From positions 12,875 through 76,874 of the forward strand of contig JBAZOP010000004.1 of the NCBI GenBank assembly GCA_041648665.1: a stretch of 64,000 nucleotides of DNA. Direction: 5' to 3'. The notes beneath the pieces were generated by a model. That model had not been told where the DNA came from. It ran no database searches and saw only the letters and a program-made list of their open reading frames with translations. Source of the DNA: a bacterium (GTDB lineage: Bacteria > UBA10199 > 2-02-FULL-44-16 > JAAZCA01). Shown one piece after another: positions 12,985 through 21,440 of this stretch. The position numbers and the translations under genes are program-made. The first letter of the stretch is position 1. The number at the start of each line of letters is the position of its first letter.

Positions 12985-13073
12985 CAAAGGAATTTCAAGC
13001 AGTTATAAGAATACCGCCGCTTTCATCCCTCTGATTTTCCCACAATACTCCCACAATTTTTCAAAAAGCCGGG

Positions 13074-14216
13074 TCAAACTGCGCTTTCTACGACTCGGAA
13101 TTTTGTCTTTTGCAGGTCCCGAATCGTCGGCAATAAATTCACTGCGCGCCGCAGTTGATCCGTTTGAACCTCGGTATAAATCTCCATCGTTAACCGAACG
13201 TCGGCATGGCCCAGCAAGGTCTGTGCTTCCTTGGGATGCGCTCCGTGCCGCGCCAACAGGGAGCAGAAAGTCTTGCGCAATCCGTGCAACGTCACTCCCT
13301 GAATCCCCGCCTTGCTGAAGAGCCGGTTCATGCTGGGGCGGAATATGCCGACCGGACGGCCATCCCCATGACAAAACACATACTCCCTCTGTGCCGTGGT
13401 GCGCGGCAAATAAGGGCGGGGGCTGGTTCCGTTGCCGTATTGCATATTGGGCCAGTTTTCTTTGAGAAATTCGAGCGTGTCTTCCAAGTCAGGAGCCATC
13501 GGGATAACCCGCGATTCCCTGTTCTTGGTTTTGCGCTCATGGCCGGACACAATCTTGAGCAAGTGGTCGTCCCAATTGATATCCTCGAATTTCAACTGGG
13601 AGAGTTCGCCCGGCCTCATGCCCGACTGGACCATGACCAAGAGCACCGCCTTTTGCCACGGGGTAGCCATGTCCAGCAAACGACCCAATTCCGCCTCTGT
13701 CAAAGAACGACTGCCGCCTTTTTCTTCGGTCCAACGACGGACACCTTGCGCCGGGGATACGGCCAAATACCGCCATTCAACTGCTTTCTGAAACAGAAGC
13801 CGCAAGACGCTAAGCAGGATATTCTTGGAGCGGTTGTTGAGCAGCTGGGTGCCGATGAATCGTTCCAGACCTTCGCGATTGATCTGGTCCAAATGGCAAC
13901 CCTGAAACTCCTGCCGCAATTTCCCCAACCGATCCCGATAAAGCCTCACCGTACCGGGGGCGCGTGTCCCTTGCGCAAAATCGGCAAGGAACTTATCGCA
14001 AAACTCGCCCAAAAACAGCCGCACCGTGGGCGTTTGCTGGTGCGTCCCGTTCAGCAATTCATTCAGTACGGCCATCCTTCGTATCTCGGCTTCTTTCTTG
14101 CCGATGCATCCCAGCTGAATGTTTCTGTCACTACGCCCATATTCCCGTACCACAAGGTAATACCGCTTCTCGCCCTTCTTGGTTCGGTAATGCCGTACGT
14201 AGACGTTTGAAGTCAC
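13074..14216 (-). CDS. tyrosine-type site-specific integrase
   Basis: 380-aa ORF with the catalytic-domain motifs GMRPGEL, HGLRKTF and LLGHADVRLTMEIYTEV (R..HxxR..Y). The GTG start overlaps the excisionase stop (GTGA at 14213-14216). Confidence 0.9.
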   Translation of the reverse strand: MTSNVYVRHYRTKKGEKRYYLVVREYGRSDRNIQLGCIGKKEAEIRRMAVLNELLNGTHQQTPTVRLFLGEFCDKFLADFAQGTRAPGTVRLYRDRLGKLRQEFQGCHLDQINREGLERFIGTQLLNNRSKNILLSVLRLLFQKAVEWRYLAVSPAQGVRRWTEEKGGSRSLTEAELGRLLDMATPWQKAVLLVMVQSGMRPGELSQLKFEDINWDDHLLKIVSGHERKTKNRESRVIPMAPDLEDTLEFLKENWPNMQYGNGTSPRPYLPRTTAQREYVFCHGDGRPVGIFRPSMNRLFSKAGIQGVTLHGLRKTFCSLLARHGAHPKEAQTLLGHADVRLTMEIYTEVQTDQLRRAVNLLPTIRDLQKTKFRVVESAV

Positions 14217-14455
14217 CTAGCCAGCTCCTTTCTAGGGTCAAACGTCGTCTCCTCTGTGGGTGCCACTTTGTGGCTGCACCTCCGTTTCAGCCAAGTCAGG
14301 ACTTCGGAAGGAACGTATCGGCATCCTTTGCCGACATAAAAACGCGGCATCCCTTCACGATTGTATTGATCTACCGTGGACTTGGCACATTGCAGGAAGT
14401 CACAGAGTTCCTTATGCGTCAAGGGCCTCCCGGTTTTATTGCATGCGTCCGTCAC
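14213..14455 (-). CDS. excisionase/AlpA-like helix-turn-helix DNA-binding protein
   Basis: The ORF is 14213-14581. The in-frame GTG at 14455 forms a GTGA overlap with the stop of the upstream ORF. The sequence LTHKELCDFLQCAKSTVDQYNREGMPRFYVGKGCRY resembles MerR/AlpA-type excisionase HTH domains. Confidence 0.65.
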   Translation of the reverse strand: MTDACNKTGRPLTHKELCDFLQCAKSTVDQYNREGMPRFYVGKGCRYVPSEVLTWLKRRCSHKVAPTEETTFDPRKELAR

Positions 14456-14817
14456 GCAACCGCCTCCGCTTGCTGCCTTGCCAACTCCAGAATCCTCGCC
14501 AATATCTCCGAGGCGTTGCCGTCCCCGATCTTTCGCAGCGGAATGCCAGCAAGGGGCTTGTCCATGAGGTCTGAGGACCAATAAGGCAGGACGATCTCAA
14601 GCCACTCAATCAGGTGCCGGACTTTCCCGGGGTACTTCCGAGCAACGATTTTGCCAACATCCGTTCCCCAGCCGTCTCCCACGAAATAAAGCCCGTGCGC
14701 CTTGAGGACAAAGGGCCTGCGGCATATCTCTCTCACCGGGAGCTGGACGAAGTCAGCCCACTCGATCCTTTCAAATCGTCCCTCGATTAGCTCAAGGATT
14801 TCGGAGCTGGCTTTCAT
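14452..14817 (-). CDS. hypothetical protein of the island core operon
   Basis: 121-aa ORF, translationally coupled on both sides (TGATG at 14815-14819 and GTGA at 14452-14455). No motif was recognised. Confidence 0.5.
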   Translation of the reverse strand: MKASSEILELIEGRFERIEWADFVQLPVREICRRPFVLKAHGLYFVGDGWGTDVGKIVARKYPGKVRHLIEWLEIVLPYWSSDLMDKPLAGIPLRKIGDGNASEILARILELARQQAEAVA

Positions 14818-16352
14818 CAGAAGCCCTCCGGCAAGTCGGGTCCCGGCACATATCCCTCATCTTCGTCGCCCTGATGTGGCAATGAAGGCGGAGAAAACGA
14901 CAGCTGCGATGTCCGGGAGAAGGAATCCTTGTACCGCTGCACTGCATCGCCATCCCATGAAGGCGATGTCTCACACACACCGTCATTTTGAGTAACACCT
15001 GCAAGCAAGTCATTTTGAGCGGTTAGGGTGTTACCCGAAATGCGGTTGTGCTCCGGGGGAGGTGTTACTCGATTTGCCCGTGTGTGCGTCAGGAGAGGAT
15101 GAAAATCTTTTTTTAACGTGAATTTGTACGGCTCGCCATCCGTATCAGCGTCCAGAACCGCAAGCACCGCCAGCTCTTTAAGGTGATGCAAGGCCGTTTT
15201 TTTGGCCATCCCCTTTAGTCGGGCAACTTCCAAGGCAGTTGTTTGACCGCCAGCTTCAAGCATGGCCTCAAAGACAAGTCGCCGATATTCCGGCATTGAG
15301 CTGAGGCAAACGTGTCCCACAAACTGCAAATCCTCCAACTCAGCGGCACTTGCCCCGCGAATCAGTGCCGAACCCGCTATAAGTGCTTGAAGGACTTGGG
15401 CGGCTCGCCAACCGTGCTCAATCGCGGGCGCCCCATGGCGGTCATCATCCGTTGTATTGCCATCGCTCAGAGACAGTCCACCGCGTAGCAGAGTCAGGGC
15501 CTCACAGTATAGGCCGATTGAAGACGCAATTTCCTCGGACACTCCAATCTTATGAATAGACAAAGAGCGTCGAGGGACGCTCTCAAATAGCGTTTCTAAA
15601 AACACCCTAACTTTGTCAGCGCACTCCTCGCGGTTGACAGACGGCTTCTTTGTACCACGAATCAACGCAGCATAATCACGGGCGCTAGGACGCTTTGAAT
15701 CCGTTGAAATGAAAAAGAGCCGCGTTCCGAGAGCAGCCATCAGACCGAAGACTTTAGGACGCGGCGGCGTTGTAGCGCCAAGCCAGACAAAATTGATTGG
15801 GTCGGAATAGCCGCGCGTTCCTTGTGTGCCGCTAGATGTTACGAGTCCCTCGCCGTCAAGCACACTTGTAAGCTGAGCGAAGGCAACGCGAATATCATCT
15901 TCACGCCCGGAAAAGAGAGGCGCCAACTCCTTTGTGCAAAGGCACGCATCGCGCAACTTTGGCAGCAAATCTATTTTTTCAAGCTGTTCCTTTTTGACAT
16001 TTGAAGCATGAGAGACAAATGCCTTCGGCGTAAAACTATCGCATCTGACGATCCCGACAAGGCCGGACCTCATAATCCATGTCAGCGGCTCAGTTTTGCC
16101 GGAGCCTGACGGACCCATAGCGATCATAGTTACAGGCAAAGGGAAATCTGAAAGACATAGGGACGCAGTTGCAGCAAGATAAGCATGGAGCTGAGGCCAC
16201 AATGCTGGGAATGAACACCGCACGGCCTCCCTCATGTCCTCATATACACGCTTGAGAGACGAGTGTGCGATTGTTAGGCAGGGTTGCTCCAAAGCAGCTT
16301 GAAGCGTTGGCGCGATTTCATGCGGCATGACAAGCCCCCTCTCGCTGTTCAC
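14817..16352 (-). CDS. P-loop NTPase, SF3-helicase-like replication protein with a C-terminal winged-helix
   Basis: Walker A motif (MGPSGSGKT). The downstream layout (CTKELAPLF, LTSVLDGEG..., FVWLGATTPP) resembles the helicase half of phage/plasmid primase-helicases. The C-terminal segment TTALEVARLKGMAKKTALHHLKEL looks HTH-like. No primase domain was seen. Confidence 0.65.
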   Translation of the reverse strand: MNSERGLVMPHEIAPTLQAALEQPCLTIAHSSLKRVYEDMREAVRCSFPALWPQLHAYLAATASLCLSDFPLPVTMIAMGPSGSGKTEPLTWIMRSGLVGIVRCDSFTPKAFVSHASNVKKEQLEKIDLLPKLRDACLCTKELAPLFSGREDDIRVAFAQLTSVLDGEGLVTSSGTQGTRGYSDPINFVWLGATTPPRPKVFGLMAALGTRLFFISTDSKRPSARDYAALIRGTKKPSVNREECADKVRVFLETLFESVPRRSLSIHKIGVSEEIASSIGLYCEALTLLRGGLSLSDGNTTDDDRHGAPAIEHGWRAAQVLQALIAGSALIRGASAAELEDLQFVGHVCLSSMPEYRRLVFEAMLEAGGQTTALEVARLKGMAKKTALHHLKELAVLAVLDADTDGEPYKFTLKKDFHPLLTHTRANRVTPPPEHNRISGNTLTAQNDLLAGVTQNDGVCETSPSWDGDAVQRYKDSFSRTSQLSFSPPSLPHQGDEDEGYVPGPDLPEGF

Positions 16353-16722
16353 GGTCGGTCCGCGCTGCCCTCCTTAGACGTGCAATAGTGGCATCAATTT
16401 CCGCAAGCAATTCTCGCCTATACAGCACCTTAAGCGCGTCGTCGTATGCATAAAGCTGTTCATCAATTTCAGCCCATACGCGCTTCAAGTCTTCATCGCT
16501 CAACCGGCCTTCGTTATGCAGTTTGCGAGCGATCTGCGTCTGCAGGCAGGCTCGATCTGCAACGAGGCGGTCAAGCCATTTCCAACGTTCGACAGCATTT
16601 CTGCGGTAAACATGTAAGGCAACAATTGCCACTTCATGGTCAAAGAAATTTAGTTCTTGATACGTCCCTGAATTAACGTTATTCATTATCTGCATTTCCT
16701 TTCTGCCCCGGTCCGCCGACAA
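16318..16722 (-). CDS. hypothetical protein (island)
   Basis: 134-aa ORF. The likely true start is the third Met (MNNVNSG, about 16686), which lies 9 nt after an AGGAA. The protein is helical and charged. No motif was recognised. Confidence 0.45.
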   Translation of the reverse strand: MSADRGRKEMQIMNNVNSGTYQELNFFDHEVAIVALHVYRRNAVERWKWLDRLVADRACLQTQIARKLHNEGRLSDEDLKRVWAEIDEQLYAYDDALKVLYRRELLAEIDATIARLRRAARTDREQREGACHAA

Positions 16723-16739
16723 GCTGCCGGGGCATTTGT

Positions 16740-16952
16740 TTATGAGTTCCGCGAATCCTTCTCAAATATTTCATCCGGTTTTAGCCCTAGTATTTGCCCA
16801 ACGCGAACAAGGCGCGCATCGCCATTACGGACGCGCTGCGCTCCAATAACCCACTTACTCAAGAGTGAGGGATTAACATCGGCTTTTAGAGCCACACGAT
16901 ATTGCGGCTCGTGCCAGAGCTTCAATCTATCTTTGAATTGTTGAGATAGCAT
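16740..16952 (-). CDS. small Cro/XRE-like HTH regulator
   Basis: 70-aa ORF with an HTH-like core (YRVALKADVNPSLLSKWVIG). It is the first gene of the minus-strand island operon. Confidence 0.6.
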   Translation of the reverse strand: MLSQQFKDRLKLWHEPQYRVALKADVNPSLLSKWVIGAQRVRNGDARLVRVGQILGLKPDEIFEKDSRNS

Positions 16953-17034
16953 CTATTCCTCCAGTTTGCTTACCGGAGGTTTATAGAATAAGAATTACAA
17001 TGACTAGTAAGTGGAGGTTTCAGATGGGTGTGAG

Positions 17035-17054
17035 ATCAACACCCAAGTGTTGAT
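17035..17054. promoter_or_regulatory. 20-bp palindrome (ATCAACAC-CCAA-GTGTTGAT), candidate operator or terminator at the module boundary
   Basis: A perfect 8-bp inverted repeat with a 4-nt centre. It lies between the stop of the 227-aa gene (17066) and the start of the Cro-like gene (16952). Confidence 0.35.
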
Positions 17055-17065
17055 GGCAGGCCAGA

Positions 17066-17749
17066 CTATATTTGCAGTCTCTCGAACTCTCTTTTGACAA
17101 TCGTCTTGATCGTACTGCTTTTGAGCACGCGTCGATCACTGTTGCAAGGATGCTGTTCGTAGAGAAATGCCAATGTGTCTATTGCCTCTTGGTGGCTCTT
17201 TCCGCAGTCCACAACCAAGCAGGAAACAAGGCAGGCAATATTCATATCACGAGATTCATTCCAAGATATTTTAGGCATTTGATTGCGCTGCTGTGCAGTC
17301 TTCATCACATCTTCCAATACATCCTCTGCATCACACATTACATGCCTCACAGATAGCGGTCGTTTCATAATGACATGCTCGTAAGTGTAGTTCTTATTAA
17401 ACCAACGAGTCAGTTCGAGCAGTTTTTTTACTTTCTTCATGTTGTCGCGAGAGAACTGAAAACGTTTCTCGCTAGCCAAATGGTACCATTCGATAATGTC
17501 AGCAAGGATAAAACAGAAGGGTCTTATGCTCTTAATCCCACTTTCACTCAATTTATTGAGGTAGGAAAGAACGGCTTCGTCATCACAGCCAATTTTATAA
17601 AACCAACCGCTGATTCTCTTTACGCCATCTACCACGGTTTCCGTGCGTATTGGCGTGTACTGCTGGTATTTTGTCAGACCACATCTCAAGGCTATTTTGA
17701 GTTTCTCATAATCCGATCCAGGTCTTTCGGACCTTCTCCCTTTTTTCAC
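17066..17749 (-). CDS. hypothetical 227-aa protein (AT-rich island cargo)
   Basis: A long ORF in a visibly AT-richer segment. No signal peptide and no known motif were recognised. Confidence 0.55.
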   Translation of the reverse strand: MKKGRRSERPGSDYEKLKIALRCGLTKYQQYTPIRTETVVDGVKRISGWFYKIGCDDEAVLSYLNKLSESGIKSIRPFCFILADIIEWYHLASEKRFQFSRDNMKKVKKLLELTRWFNKNYTYEHVIMKRPLSVRHVMCDAEDVLEDVMKTAQQRNQMPKISWNESRDMNIACLVSCLVVDCGKSHQEAIDTLAFLYEQHPCNSDRRVLKSSTIKTIVKREFERLQI

Positions 17750-17837
17750 CCCGCCCCTCGCAGTCTCCCTGAAAGATTGAAGGGGCAGGCGGATAGGGAT
17801 GCCGCTTTTCGGGAGCGACCCTAGCCCCGTCTTTATC

Positions 17838-18125
17838 TCACTTCTCTTTTTCGCTTATCCTCTTAGCTGTTATATTAACAAACATTCCCGCACCAATACA
17901 TGCGATCATGCCGATGACCCAGCCCGCACCGTTGTCCGGCCCGGGTGAAAACCTATAGCCCGTTTCTGACGGTGACACATACCGCGATCTACCCCGTCCC
18001 CCTCCTTCGTAATTAACCCATCTCGGATAATTAGGATTGTAGATATGTGAAAAAGCAACCAATGCGCACACAAAAGCTATAAGCCAAAGCGTCCAGGCGA
18101 TCACCTTCAACTGTTTGCGCGACAT
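17838..18125 (-). CDS. small membrane protein (two hydrophobic segments)
   Basis: The ORF is 17838-18230. The start at the Met at 18125 (MSRKQLKVIAWTLWLIAFVCALVAF...) avoids overlap with the XRE gene ending at 18148. A second TM segment lies near the C-terminus (GWVIGMIACIGAGMFV). Confidence 0.5.
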   Translation of the reverse strand: MSRKQLKVIAWTLWLIAFVCALVAFSHIYNPNYPRWVNYEGGGRGRSRYVSPSETGYRFSPGPDNGAGWVIGMIACIGAGMFVNITAKRISEKEK

Positions 18126-18147
18126 GTTTCTCCCCCCATATGTGAAC

Positions 18148-18360
18148 TTACCTCTTTCGATATTCCAATATATCGTCCAGCCGACAACCAAAAACAGTGC
18201 AGACCTTATCAAGCACATCAGTGCAGACATTGTAATCTTTATGATTCTTTGCCTTTATCAGCAAAGCGGCTGTGTTAGGGCTTACACCCGCTGCATCCGC
18301 AAGCCGCCTCGCTGAAAACCCCTTTGATTTAGCCATATTACCTATTTTATATTTAATCAT
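18148..18360 (-). CDS. XRE-family HTH transcriptional regulator
   Basis: 70-aa ORF with an HTH_3-like core (KGFSARRLADAAGVSPNTAALLIK). There is no Shine-Dalgarno before the ATG, which sits about 8 nt from a -10-like TATATA, so the transcript may be leaderless. Confidence 0.75.
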   Translation of the reverse strand: MIKYKIGNMAKSKGFSARRLADAAGVSPNTAALLIKAKNHKDYNVCTDVLDKVCTVFGCRLDDILEYRKR

Positions 18361-18363
18361 AAG

Positions 18364-18424
18364 TGTCCTATATAACAGACGGTTGGCGTTGACAAGTTAT
18401 TCCAGGTGTCCTATATAAAGGACA
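18364..18424. promoter_or_regulatory. divergent promoter/operator region with two related 18-bp palindromic sites
   Basis: Site A is TGTCCTATATAACAGACG (18364-18381). Site B is TGTCCTATATAAAGGACA (18407-18424). GTGTCCTATATAA is repeated exactly. A TTGACA (18389-18394), 17 nt, TATATA (18412-18417) promoter faces the recombinase and overlaps site B. Confidence 0.55.
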
Positions 18425-18439
18425 TATGGAGGGACAAAT

Positions 18440-19006
18440 ATGAAGATTGCAATCTATTGCCGTGTTTCAACCGAAGATCAGAAAGCCGACCTTCAGCTCG
18501 ATGCCCTTCGCCAATATGCCAAGGCCCGGGGGCTTGAGGTACATAAGGAATATGTTGACCATATCAGCGGGGCCAAGGAGAGCCGCCCTGCCCTCGATGA
18601 GATGCTTGCCGATGCCAGGCGCGGGAGGATCGGCGCGGTCTGCGTGTGGAAAATTGACAGGCTTGGCCGCTCAGTCTCCCATCTCCTTAAGGTCCTGTCC
18701 GAGCTGCAAGCCCTTGGGGTTGCATTTGTGAGCCTTCAAGAGGCAATCGACACGGCCACGCCTGCGGGTCGCATGGTTTTTACCTTCCTTGGGGCCGTGG
18801 CGGAATTTGAGCGGGCGATTATAGCGGAGAGGGTCAAGGCAGGGATGAAGGCAGCCAAGAGCCGAGGGAAGCATTGCGGACGCCCGAAGGCCAGCCTTGA
18901 CCTCAGCCTTGCCCGTCAACTCCGCTCTGAGGGCAAATCCTTGCGCCAGGTGGCTGCTCTCGCTGGGGTCTCGACTGCCACGCTTTCAAGAGCACTCGCG
19001 GCATAA
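18440..19006 (+). CDS. serine recombinase (resolvase/invertase family)
   Basis: The N-terminus is MKIAIYCRVSTEDQ, containing the catalytic Ser. It also has VWKIDRLGRS and a C-terminal HTH (KSLRQVAALAGVSTATLSRAL). GGAGGG lies 6 nt upstream of the ATG. Confidence 0.9.
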   Translation: MKIAIYCRVSTEDQKADLQLDALRQYAKARGLEVHKEYVDHISGAKESRPALDEMLADARRGRIGAVCVWKIDRLGRSVSHLLKVLSELQALGVAFVSLQEAIDTATPAGRMVFTFLGAVAEFERAIIAERVKAGMKAAKSRGKHCGRPKASLDLSLARQLRSEGKSLRQVAALAGVSTATLSRALAA

Positions 19007-19030
19007 GGACGGCCAGCCTGATAAAGAAAC

Positions 19031-19060
19031 GCCCCGCCATCGAGCGGGGCTTTCTTGTTT
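19031..19060 (+). terminator. rho-independent terminator downstream of the serine recombinase
   Basis: Hairpin GCCCCGC-catcga-GCGGGGC followed by TTTCTTGTTT. Confidence 0.7.
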
Positions 19061-19156
19061 CAAAAGGGTCCCTAAAACCGAGCCTCAAACTCCCTGTAAT
19101 TACGCACCCTCAATCGGGCTGTTTCGCTGTCTCAAAAGGTGAAGGTTTTGAAATCT

Positions 19157-19630
19157 CTAAGGACCCATTAAGTCTAAAACTTGTCTCTCATATTCACAGG
19201 ATGAAATGATAGCGTCCTTATTGATTAATGATCGAGCTTTCAAAATCCAATACCTTAACCAATGAATACGCGTTTCAAAAAGATTTTCTGATAATTTTCT
19301 ATAAAGGGGTGAATAAGTACCGTCGGCCATTCCAGCAGAAATTATTTGATCCTTTTCAAGGCATGTCCAGTTATCCGCGTCATAAATGGAGCAGTTCTGA
19401 TAGGTAATCGAACCAATTGAATCTATTTTCTTCGTGACAACTTGCCCTACTGGATAAATTTTATACTCATGCTTTTCCGGGCCTTCCATTAACAACCTAA
19501 CCTTAACGGGTCGGCTAGATGTTCGATCACATACAATTACATAAACGGTTTTCTCATGTGCAATATCGCAACCAGCACTAAGAGCAATGCACACTATTAC
19601 AATCAAACCTAACGCCAAGTGAATCTTCAT
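19157..19630 (-). CDS. putative lipoprotein, function unknown (AT-rich cargo)
   Basis: 157-aa ORF with signal peptide and lipobox (MKIHLALGLIVIVCIALSAGC). Confidence 0.55.
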   Translation of the reverse strand: MKIHLALGLIVIVCIALSAGCDIAHEKTVYVIVCDRTSSRPVKVRLLMEGPEKHEYKIYPVGQVVTKKIDSIGSITYQNCSIYDADNWTCLEKDQIISAGMADGTYSPLYRKLSENLFETRIHWLRYWILKARSLINKDAIISSCEYERQVLDLMGP

Positions 19631-19663
19631 AATATATTTTTCCCAATTCCTTTCCGTTGATAG

Positions 19664-20029
19664 CTATTTCTTACAAGGAAATTTTTCTTTTAAAGAAAGC
19701 AGCACGCCAGAACGAGCAGGTGTTTTTTTCTCCTTGGGATACTTTTGCAGCCATTTCGAAAATATTCCGATTGCATCGTCAACGGATACCCCACTGTTAG
19801 GCATGCAGATGAATCGGCTCTGAGGATAGAGGTCGGACGTGATCCTGTTACCATCGATAACACCGTCAATATATGTGGCGCAATATACATCGGATATGAG
19901 AGCTTTAGGATCGGAGGGCGCTTTCCCCAACTTGTGACATTCGTCATAAAGTTCGCCTGCGGTTTTATCACCCGCAAAAGCAACGCTTGATAAAGACAAA
20001 ATCAATCCAGCAATAAGTATTATTTTCAT
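19664..20029 (-). CDS. secreted Rap1a/Tai4-like (type VI amidase immunity-like) protein
   Basis: The start at MKIILIAGLILSLSSVAFA gives a signal peptide. The pattern GELYDEC...YCATYIDGVIDG...FICMP..VSVDDAIGIFSKWLQKYPE...LLSLKEKFPC matches the conserved Cys and spacing layout of Rap1a-family immunity proteins as I recall it. Confidence 0.55.
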   Translation of the reverse strand: MKIILIAGLILSLSSVAFAGDKTAGELYDECHKLGKAPSDPKALISDVYCATYIDGVIDGNRITSDLYPQSRFICMPNSGVSVDDAIGIFSKWLQKYPKEKKTPARSGVLLSLKEKFPCKK

Positions 20030-20106
20030 AATCTCCCTCCAATGAAATTGACAAGTCAACTAATCATGACGGTCAAATAGGGTCAATAAAATACGTCTTT
20101 TGTGGC

Positions 20107-20382
20107 GTGGTGCAAAAAGACGCATCAAGGCAATGGATAGCCCCAATGGCTATCCGACTGACAGATAAGGAAATTGAGAGATTCTTTAAGCGCCTCGGCC
20201 AACGCGTGCGGAAGCTTCGCATGGATCAGGGCTTGGTTCAAGAGGACATGCTGTCCCATGGCTTTTCTACGCGTCATTATCAGCGGATCGAGGCAGGCCT
20301 GCCCATAAATCTGAAGACAGCATATAGGCTTTGCAAGGTTTTCGGTATCTCTATATCTGAATTATTTGAAGGGCTAGAATAA
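20107..20382 (+). CDS. XRE-family HTH regulator
   Basis: 91-aa ORF with GQRVRKLRMDQGLVQEDMLSHGFSTRHYQRIEAG, an HTH_3-like segment. An alternative Met lies at 20146. Confidence 0.65.
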   Translation: MVQKDASRQWIAPMAIRLTDKEIERFFKRLGQRVRKLRMDQGLVQEDMLSHGFSTRHYQRIEAGLPINLKTAYRLCKVFGISISELFEGLE

Positions 20383-20709
20383 AGTCGGCTCTCCGTCCAT
20401 CGTTTCTTGTAATGACTGCCACTCATTAAAAAGCTGTCTTAGTTGGCGAGCCTCATTTCTTGCCTCTCTTGAATAATGGCCGTGCTTCAAATGCGCCCGC
20501 CTGATCCGCTCCAACCCCTCGGGAGTCCGGGGGCCTGTGCTGCACCCGCCGTGCATCCGACACCGCCCGTTGCGCATGGCAGGCCCCATGCAGGAAGTCC
20601 CTCGCCTTGTCTTTGCGCCGCATCTGGGAGCTTTTGAAAAGTCCCCCGGCAAATTCCCGTTTTTCAGCCAGCCCCGCCGCTGGGCATGGGGTTTATCCGC
20701 CCTTTCCAT
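20374..20709 (-). CDS. HGGxSTG-motif small protein (zinc-ribbon-like), typical of integrative elements
   Basis: The sequence CGAKTRRGTSCMGPAMRNGRCRMHGGCSTGPRTPEGLERIRRAHLKHGHYS carries the diagnostic HGGxSTG motif. Confidence 0.7.
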   Translation of the reverse strand: MERADKPHAQRRGWLKNGNLPGDFSKAPRCGAKTRRGTSCMGPAMRNGRCRMHGGCSTGPRTPEGLERIRRAHLKHGHYSREARNEARQLRQLFNEWQSLQETMDGEPTLF

Positions 20710-21334
20710 GCTTGACCCCTCCCCCCTCCCCTATGAGTCCGACAATCGCCTGACCGCCTTCGTTGACGTGGACGTGCTCGACAATGACCTTTTGCTGGCC
20801 TTGCCCTCGATAACGGTTGAGGGCCTCGATCTGGGCTGTGAAGGTCCGCATGAGTTTCGTGGCCCTGGAGATGTTGGCGTCAACGCCATCACAGGTCTGC
20901 CCCTCCAACATTGCCCTTGCCATGAAAGTCATTGCCAGATTGTGAGTCCCGACCATTTGCACGGCAAGCATCCCCTCCAATTCATCCTTAGGCTTAATGC
21001 CGTGCAATGCGGCGAGGGCGATATTACATCTGTCAACCTTTGGCATCTCTCGGTACGGTACAGTTCGTTGTGCCTGATCTAGGAATACTCCCGACAAATC
21101 ACCGTCAATAGTCCCAGTTGCTTCAACAAGGGCCATATAATCGCAGGAATTGTCAATCCGCGTCACGTCCTTATCGTCGCCTGCCTTGCGACTTAGCTTG
21201 GGCGGCTTGGGTGCTTCCCTCACCCGGCGAACAAAGGCCGCCATGCGGGCAATCTCTGCACTGGAAGGAGACGCGGCCAGCTCAGTGTTTTGCTCCACCG
21301 CTGCCAAAGTTATTTGATCGTTAGTCGCTTTCAA
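20693..21334 (-). CDS. hypothetical protein commonly paired with HGGxSTG proteins
   Basis: 213-aa ORF overlapping the downstream HGGxSTG gene by 17 nt. Its conserved-looking C-terminus is KLMRTFTAQIEALNRYRGQGQQKVIVEHVHVNEGGQAIVG. Confidence 0.6.
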   Translation of the reverse strand: MKATNDQITLAAVEQNTELAASPSSAEIARMAAFVRRVREAPKPPKLSRKAGDDKDVTRIDNSCDYMALVEATGTIDGDLSGVFLDQAQRTVPYREMPKVDRCNIALAALHGIKPKDELEGMLAVQMVGTHNLAMTFMARAMLEGQTCDGVDANISRATKLMRTFTAQIEALNRYRGQGQQKVIVEHVHVNEGGQAIVGLIGEGGGVKHGKGG

Positions 21335-21377
21335 TTTATGGCCCCCACTTTCTCATTCGCATCTATCCCAAAAAGCA

Positions 21378-21410
21378 AAAAGGCTGGGCTCAAATTGGCC
21401 TCAGCCTTTT
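21378..21410. terminator. strong hairpin with A-run/T-run flanks (bidirectional terminator downstream of tRNA-Gly GCC)
   Basis: AAAAGGCTGGGCT-caaatt-GGCCTCAGCCTTTT. It lies between the island's last gene and the tRNA 3' end. Confidence 0.6.
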
Positions 21411-21440
21411 CTAACTTCCTGATTTTTTTCTACATCTTTG

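Follow-up and report, generated by a model that had tools for sequence, protein, structure and literature searches.

A candidate int-alpA RNA leader ahead of a swappable orphan gene in a satellite-like island of a UBA10199 bacterium

Introduction

Helper phages induce satellites of the AlpA type by a route that is unknown (PMC6092414; PMC11773190). In the Vibrio PICMI satellites the gene intervening between int and alpA comes in 13 families without relation to each other, and helper-induced excision requires iolg (PMC10803314). The int-alpA RNA motif (Rfam RF02996) goes back to a 2017 survey by Weinberg et al. (PMC5737381), whose main text does not discuss it. Here we study a block of three genes in a stretch of 64,000 nucleotides (nt) of bacterial DNA (GCA_041648665.1, contig JBAZOP010000004.1, positions 12,875 to 76,874), which we call the window and to which all positions refer unless another contig is named. 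The block (17066-18360, minus strand) lies on an island next to tRNA-Gly genes and encodes a regulator of the XRE type, a protein of 95 amino acids (aa) with two membrane segments and a 227-aa orphan, with an int-alpA RNA between the last two.

Judged from sequence, this RNA belongs to a described family and the 227-aa protein to none, and the island is similar to phage satellites. In Rfam the motif is classed as a small RNA (sRNA) of unknown function; in contrast, it stands directly before an open reading frame (ORF) in all nine instances that we compared and is extended by a hairpin carrying the ribosome-binding site. Its host is in a small phylum (93 species) and not in Pseudomonadota, and it lies ~3.5 kb from the integrase gene instead of between int and alpA. 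We lean, with moderate confidence, towards regarding the block as the regulatory head of the island's replication and excision string, in which the int-alpA leader would gate a swappable ORF that takes part in the island's own cycle. Such a role of the swappable gene is more likely than one in stand-alone defence.

Results

The 88 nt that separate the 95-aa gene from the 227-aa gene were given their correct length in the initial annotation of this DNA, which took them for a mere spacer and overlooked that they contain a full-length int-alpA RNA (17767-17831, minus strand). The program cmscan assigns it to RF02996 with 51.9 bits, above the gathering score of 35.8, and aligns it to positions 1-71 of the 71 in the model. 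It has the three-way junction of the family, formed by the stems P1, P2 and P3, together with a putative pseudoknot between CCCU in the P3 loop and AGGG in the 3' tail. The remaining leader (17750-17766, minus strand) can form a 4-bp hairpin, 17760-17763 with 17751-17754, which carries the Shine-Dalgarno (SD) sequence GAGGG (17755-17759) in its loop and lies 1 nt from the GTG start codon of the 227-aa gene.

We compared this arrangement across nine instances of the RNA, those of the window, a sister island B, two metagenome islands, three other genomes of the same phylum and satellite-type islands of Escherichia coli; the sequences were segmented by hand and checked against the DNA, and the pairs were picked by eye. 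First, the junction is paired at 5-8 of 5-8 positions in P1 and at 3-4 of 3-4 in P2, P3 is complete, and the stems covary across instances (e.g., GCGG/CCGC versus GTCTGG/CCAGAC). Second, the P3 loop and the 3' tail of the model pair as CCCU/AGGG, CCUG/CAGG, ACCUUA/UAAGGU or GCCUUA/UAAGGC, and these compensatory changes indicate a pseudoknot. Third, the SD hairpin, of 4-5 bp, is fully paired in all nine, with GAGGG or AAGG in the loop at 0-5 nt before the start codon, and with stems that differ by instance (CTGC/GCGG, CAAC/GTTG, ATCGT/ACGAT, GCGT/ACGC). Fourth, the ORF starts 16-24 nt past the end of the RNA model in every one of the nine, the distance in one genome (G020) being counted from the likely ATG and not from the first in-frame GTG.

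The SD region has an alternative partner. Positions 17750-17759 can pair with 17779-17789, the 3' strand of P1, and this SD-sequestering fold is the minimum-energy structure in the window, with -37.6 kcal/mol versus -24.1 for the junction (pseudoknot term not included). It is also the minimum-energy fold in island B, in the related island L008 and in G020. The position of the RNA directly before the ORF and its extension by a hairpin that bears the SD indicate a cis-acting leader, and we infer that this leader can gate translation of the ORF that follows.

The RNA precedes an ORF also in island B and in the related islands L008 and L014, is found in three other genomes of the same phylum (G020, G045 and G048), and occurs in 177 of 5426 complete E. 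coli genomes. The ORFs behind it, mostly of 203-317 aa and one per locus, are mutually unrelated and matched no protein family; we call their place the slot. The five E. coli genomes that we examined have int first, then the RNA, a gene for a hypothetical protein of 281-317 aa, an AlpA-type helix-turn-helix (HTH) gene and Icd-like/antirepressor genes, with a Toprim/DUF927 primase gene next where the examined stretch extends that far. Among these E. coli islands Int is 91-95% and AlpA 88-94% identical, and the slot proteins are 26-30% identical or unalignable. The slot is always upstream of small regulator and/or primase-helicase genes.

What stands 5' of the RNA is variable. It is the 95-aa gene in the window's island (island A) and in island B, a 275-aa gene in its place in L008, and nothing in L014, where the XRE gene and the slot ORF are present. 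In G045 (L021, G045:C143, 30-577) a RelB antitoxin/YafQ toxin pair lies directly 5' of the RNA, which is followed by a 203-aa slot ORF and then by a gene for a DnaG-type primase, with no small partner between them. In G020 (L020, G020:C122, 6081-7774), a genome of the same family, the RNA adjoins rtcB, is preceded by the gene of a 113-aa membrane protein with two segments and is followed only by short ORFs (~107 and 105 aa); this locus is probably a decayed island or remnant, because it has no int or rep gene. The 113-aa protein and the 95-aa protein, which occupy the same position, show no similarity to each other.

The exchange of the slot gene is most directly seen in island B, which belongs to the same metagenome-assembled genome (MAG; G000) and is split over contigs C5:56160-62765 and C9:1-2020 (L002/L006). 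The C9 part encodes an integrase distinct from that of island A and has a 27-nt repeat of the 3' end of tRNA-Gly(GCC), which marks one border; the other border is a second, identical copy of tRNA-Gly(CCC). Neither contig covers the central part of the helicase gene, which the assembly probably collapsed. Island B is also near rtcB. Since the MAG has 205 contigs and 4.6% contamination, the two islands may come from different strains. Their DNA is ~97% identical over a tract that begins in the final codons of the XRE gene, takes in the 95-aa gene (96% identical as protein) and the whole 88-nt spacer, and ends at the next start codon. There the 227-aa gene and the gene of a 70-aa small HTH-like protein (16740-16952, minus strand) give way in B to an unrelated 258-aa gene and a distant 69-aa homologue, and ~97% identity resumes at the stop codon of the small HTH gene and runs into the 134-aa and helicase genes (~95-97% identical in nucleotides).

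Genes that are swapped together invite a comparison with toxin-antitoxin pairs in which the toxin comes first, such as higBA and mqsRA, all the more as the small partner is HTH-like by a weak PHROG match. Yet the 227-aa protein and its 70-aa neighbour are very unlikely to be such a pair: no toxin or antitoxin family, as a type II system would show, matches in Pfam, PADLOC, PHROGs or NCBIfam; the small protein is homologous to those of the other islands (B69, L8_72 and L14_68, E 1e-15 to 1e-6) and not to E. coli AlpA, so that one conserved family is paired with mutually unrelated partners; and the G045 slot gene stands directly before the primase gene.

The backbone common to the relatives consists of a serine recombinase gene, accompanied in some by XRE; a single ORF of 207-304 aa that matches no family; then genes for a small protein, a protein of 104-134 aa and a helicase; and, where the contig reaches, a 121-aa gene, xis and int. 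We compared the slot proteins by BLASTP, phmmer and hhalign, using those of 227, 258, 219, 207, 203 and 213 aa and those of E. coli, as well as ORFs of 304, 208 and 240 aa that take the slot place in relatives without the RNA. They are mutually unrelated or nearly so, and none matched Pfam, PADLOC or PHROGs. A C-terminal "YPD[DE]" motif seen by eye was rejected as a sign of homology, since its profile failed when single proteins were left out in turn: L11_208 alone came first (E=0.21), the 227-aa protein placed 31st (E=50), and hhalign gave probabilities below 1%. The 304-aa ORF at the slot place of L009 (6412-7326), which has no RNA, reaches 22.8 bits with PF20109 (transcriptional-regulator-like), short of the cut-off of 23.8.

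The 227-aa gene (17066-17749, minus strand) that fills the slot of the window gives a protein found only as itself, both in a word-indexed search of 5.8 billion clusters and in a full HMMER scan of 1.84 billion representative proteins, and no PDB sequence matched it. The only relative of the 95-aa protein is the copy in island B; a tblastn search of phage records returned no match. In agreement with the initial annotation, which recognised no motif in the 227-aa protein, neither protein hit any family in the libraries searched (Pfam, PADLOC, PHROGs and NCBIfam). An orphan with a low-confidence structure model and no homologue anywhere searched might be a decaying remnant or a chance frame, a reading that we hold to be extremely unlikely. 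The longest open frame in 17000-17850 has 260 codons, compared with a mean of 88 and a maximum of 214 in 2000 shuffles; because none of these reached 260, the frame is not a chance one. Moreover, SD and start codon are conserved at the same distance from the RNA in all nine instances, and the slot of every relative holds an intact ORF.

The two genes upstream complete the block. The XRE gene (18148-18360, minus strand) encodes a Cro/C1-type HTH regulator of 70 aa that matches Pfam HTH_26 over residues 5-68 with 43.2 bits (cut-off 22; E=4.8e-11). The 95-aa gene (17838-18125, minus strand), an optional gene placed after XRE and ahead of the RNA leader, starts at an ATG preceded by GGGGGGAG, in a frame that could at the longest give 130 aa; hydropathy supports the two hydrophobic segments proposed in the initial annotation, at approximately residues 8-26 and 67-87, with a loop rich in Gly, Pro and Arg between them. 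The three ORFs, their spacings (22 nt between the XRE and 95-aa genes, 88 nt between the 95-aa and 227-aa genes) and their low G+C are as first described: G+C is 0.42-0.49 versus 0.59-0.63 in host genes, and G+C at third codon positions is 0.41-0.51 versus 0.75-0.86. The evidence likewise supports an AT-rich, foreign-looking block on a mobile island, headed by a regulator. The XRE gene indeed has no SD sequence upstream, and a promoter-like TTGTCA-N15-TATATA ends 8 nt upstream of its ATG, a position compatible with the leaderless mRNA that had been suggested; the mRNA is possibly leaderless, which this fit does not prove.

The proposal that did not hold is that these three genes form one defence or abortive-infection cassette. 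Phage lambda expresses rexA and rexB together with cI, and a defence, abortive-infection or superinfection-exclusion cassette might in the same way be expressed from the repressor's promoter. Such a cassette could be AT-rich and foreign-looking, as the block is; accessory-type genes lie 5' of the RNA elsewhere (RelB/YafQ in G045, the membrane protein in G020), the turnover of the slot is what one expects of genes in an arms race, and satellites are known to carry defence genes (PMC10085698; PMC10803314). We nevertheless consider it unlikely. First, the three genes are not inherited together, because relatives lack or replace the 95-aa gene and swap the slot gene: island B keeps the former and exchanges the latter, L014 has XRE and slot without a 95-aa gene, and L008 has a different gene in its place. 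The initial annotation had itself named a lack of conserved linkage as refuting its idea. Second, the XRE gene does not head a self-contained module; it heads a co-directional string that leads into replication, excision and integration genes (in order on the minus strand, XRE, 95 aa, RNA leader, 227 aa, 70-aa HTH, 134 aa, helicase, 121 aa, Xis and Int), and the slot lies inside this string. Third, PADLOC-DB v2 gave no convincing match: none for the 95-aa and 227-aa proteins, a chance-level one for XRE (E=0.021), and none at E<=0.01 for ten other slot or neighbouring proteins.

The defence hotspots of P4-like and PICI elements share with the slot a fixed place in a mobile element whose contents change between close relatives. 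They differ from it in that they vary in the number and size of their genes and hold recognisable systems, whereas the RNA is always followed by a single ORF, mostly of 203-317 aa and of no known defence family. The slot is also within the regulatory and replication string and not at the element's edge, and PICI defence genes are reported between the attachment site (att) and int (PMC10085698). A defence or exclusion role, for which we found nothing positive, may still apply, above all to the 95-aa membrane protein; if any part of the block is exclusion-type cargo, the 95-aa gene is the better candidate.

Upstream of the block, the gene of a small serine recombinase of the resolvase/invertase type (188 aa; 18440-19006, plus strand; Pfam Resolvase E=3.7e-51) diverges from the XRE gene. 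It is ~80% identical in nucleotides in island B, and a serine recombinase adjoins the slot region in L008, L009, L011 and L013; it is a backbone gene of the island family. XRE homologues stand at the matching place in island B, L008 and L014. The divergent control region (18361-18439) holds the promoter-like TTGTCA-N15-TATATA and two related 18-bp dyads, at 18407-18424 (TGTCCTTTATATAGGACA) and 18363-18380. In island B, where XRE is 42% identical in amino acids, the intergenic control sequence is different. The half-sites of the dyads (TGTCCTTTA / TGTCCTATA / CGTCTGTTA) resemble TGTCYNNTA, the half-site of Tn3/gamma-delta resolvases, and because of this likeness the dyads could serve the recombinase, either in addition to XRE or in its place. 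Their 18-bp spacing fits an HTH repressor better.

Downstream of the block, a perfect 8-bp hairpin, ATCAACAC-TTGG-GTGTTGAT (17035-17054, minus strand), lies just past the stop codon of the 227-aa gene, within the exchanged segment, and is not followed by a T-run. The SD of the 70-aa gene, GGAGG, can pair with CCTCC 12 nt upstream (hairpin 16958-16979), and this hairpin may be a second point of translational control. Next on the same strand come the 134-aa gene (16318-16722) and the gene of a 511-aa Walker-A replication helicase (14817-16352). A protein database search gave 127 homologues of the latter, some fused to Prim-Pol, Toprim, zf-CHC2 or DnaB-N, and pattern scans of genome contigs and viral contigs found no relatives; the island's own proteins have no primase domain in Pfam. 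A 122-aa ORF has only a weak match to HTH_17, below the cut-off (E=0.005). The integrase gene (13074-14216; Phage_integrase E=6.5e-26) is ~90 nt from tRNA-Gly(CCC). At 20374-21334 lies the gene of an HGGxSTG-domain protein (NCBIfam NF041373, E=9.7e-15) that also matches a small-terminase PHROG (E=5.7e-6) and that, with a 213-aa partner, may be a packaging or hijack module of the island.

Discussion

Our analysis suggests how a short string of regulatory and replication genes could accommodate a gene that is replaced from one island to the next. Three arguments are in favour of the block being the regulatory head of that string: its fixed place before regulator and replication genes, the slot for a single ORF, and the analogy with PICMI iolg. 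In this mechanism 1) the XRE protein would repress or autoregulate the gene string; 2) the int-alpA RNA would act in cis as a translational gate; 3) the junction fold would be in competition with a hairpin in which the SD of the 227-aa gene is buried; 4) the 227-aa protein would be the local allele of a fast-replaced slot gene of int-alpA/AlpA-type satellites; 5) it would act in the island's cycle, e.g., in activation, in excision or in the recognition of a particular phage; and 6) the 95-aa membrane protein would be accessory cargo, possibly with an exclusion function, co-expressed with the regulator.

The closest parallels are the E. coli yicC islands and the iolg/icg genes of Vibrio PICMI (PMC10803314). 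In all of them, as here, islands that are almost the same elsewhere differ in one ORF of unknown function, which lies upstream of a small regulator and of primase/helicase genes, and in the E. coli islands the slot gene is also behind the same RNA. The 227-aa protein, in contrast, has no similarity in sequence or profile to any of their products. The likeness to iolg/icg is in wider features only, i.e., one unknown ORF drawn from many unrelated families and placed upstream of regulator and replication genes: iolg/icg overlap or are contiguous with int and precede alpA, whereas the 227-aa gene is ~2.8 kb from int with five genes between.

Satellite P4 offers a different model, with its kil/eta genes, in which the translation of an ORF counts and its product does not. 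Applied to the slot, ribosomes on the 227-aa ORF would block premature termination and the leader would thereby gate the replication genes, which would leave the slot sequence free to vary. The leader RNA does immediately precede the first long ORF on the way to the replication genes, and the ORFs are unrelated yet alike in length. The CI RNA of P4, a processed leader RNA, halts the P4 replication genes by premature termination and resembles the RNA of the window in being small and structured, in having two hairpins on a basal stem, and in its place in the leader of a replication string (PMC4825925). This explanation seems to us distinctly improbable. The Rfam C4 model, which covers such RNAs of P4 and P1, has no match at E<=1, and there is no complementary stretch of at least 10 nt in the flanks or antisense target of that length in the operon, matches of 8-9 nt being at the chance level of shuffles. 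P4 immunity works by antisense-driven termination, whereas the features of the window point to control of the ribosome-binding site. In addition, islands differ by replacement and not by drift, the E. coli slot proteins keep detectable families, and deletion of PICMI iolg has a phenotype (PMC10803314).

At the level of the whole element, the island resembles PICI, P4-like and PICMI satellites as SatelliteFinder defines them (PMC10085698; PMC6092414): it is ~8.5 kb long and beside tRNA genes, has an integrase, an Xis-like HTH protein and a replication helicase, lacks virion and lysis genes, and encodes the HGGxSTG protein with its small-terminase PHROG match. It differs from them in that no clear AlpA homologue and no primase domain were recognised in it, and in the XRE and serine recombinase genes at its control region.

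A number of points weigh against reading the block as a leader-gated regulatory head. The SD-burying fold is strong in this island lineage only, and the junction itself folds best in G045, G048 and E. coli; a manual segmentation of nine sequences, five of them closely related, underlies both the SD hairpin and the pseudoknot; and the sRNA label that Rfam gives the motif means that it may act in trans. The integrase gene does not adjoin the slot gene, and the small HTH protein encoded after the latter is no AlpA homologue, so that the equivalence with iolg/icg and the E. coli genes rests on the RNA and the gene order. The 227-aa protein is without homologues and its function, like that of the 95-aa protein, is argued from position; it is predicted to be soluble and all-helical, and the AlphaFold model, made from the single sequence with no alignment, is all-helical with a predicted local distance difference test score (pLDDT) of 44, which makes it unusable. 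Finally, the phage-satellite nature of the island is unproven: it has no known helper, and within 12986-21440 the tRNA-Gly(CCC) end and the opposite end have no direct att repeat of at least 11 nt in common, and the convergent pair of tRNA-Gly genes supplies only an inverted CCCGCTCAAAG.

Since it was catalogued in 2017 the int-alpA RNA has had no function assigned, and the question of how helpers activate AlpA-type satellites has stayed open (PMC6092414; PMC10803314). To this the locus adds another phylum, an XRE-headed layout in which slot and int lie far apart, a slot filled by a complete orphan, and a strong alternative fold in which the SD is buried. It also carries a lesson for annotation, namely that AT-rich orphan cargo genes are not defence candidates merely for sitting on an island. 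The regulatory-head reading provides a concrete hypothesis, that the leader gates a phage-specific slot gene, which is testable in the E. coli islands that carry the same RNA. One may go further and suppose that the leader is of a sensor type, that its signal is a protein, a ligand or an RNA, and that it frees translation of the slot protein upon infection by a particular phage and so lets this protein switch the island on. We regard this extension as a long shot. If true, it would be the missing induction route of AlpA-type satellites, found far outside Proteobacteria, and each allele of the slot would tune its island to a different phage.

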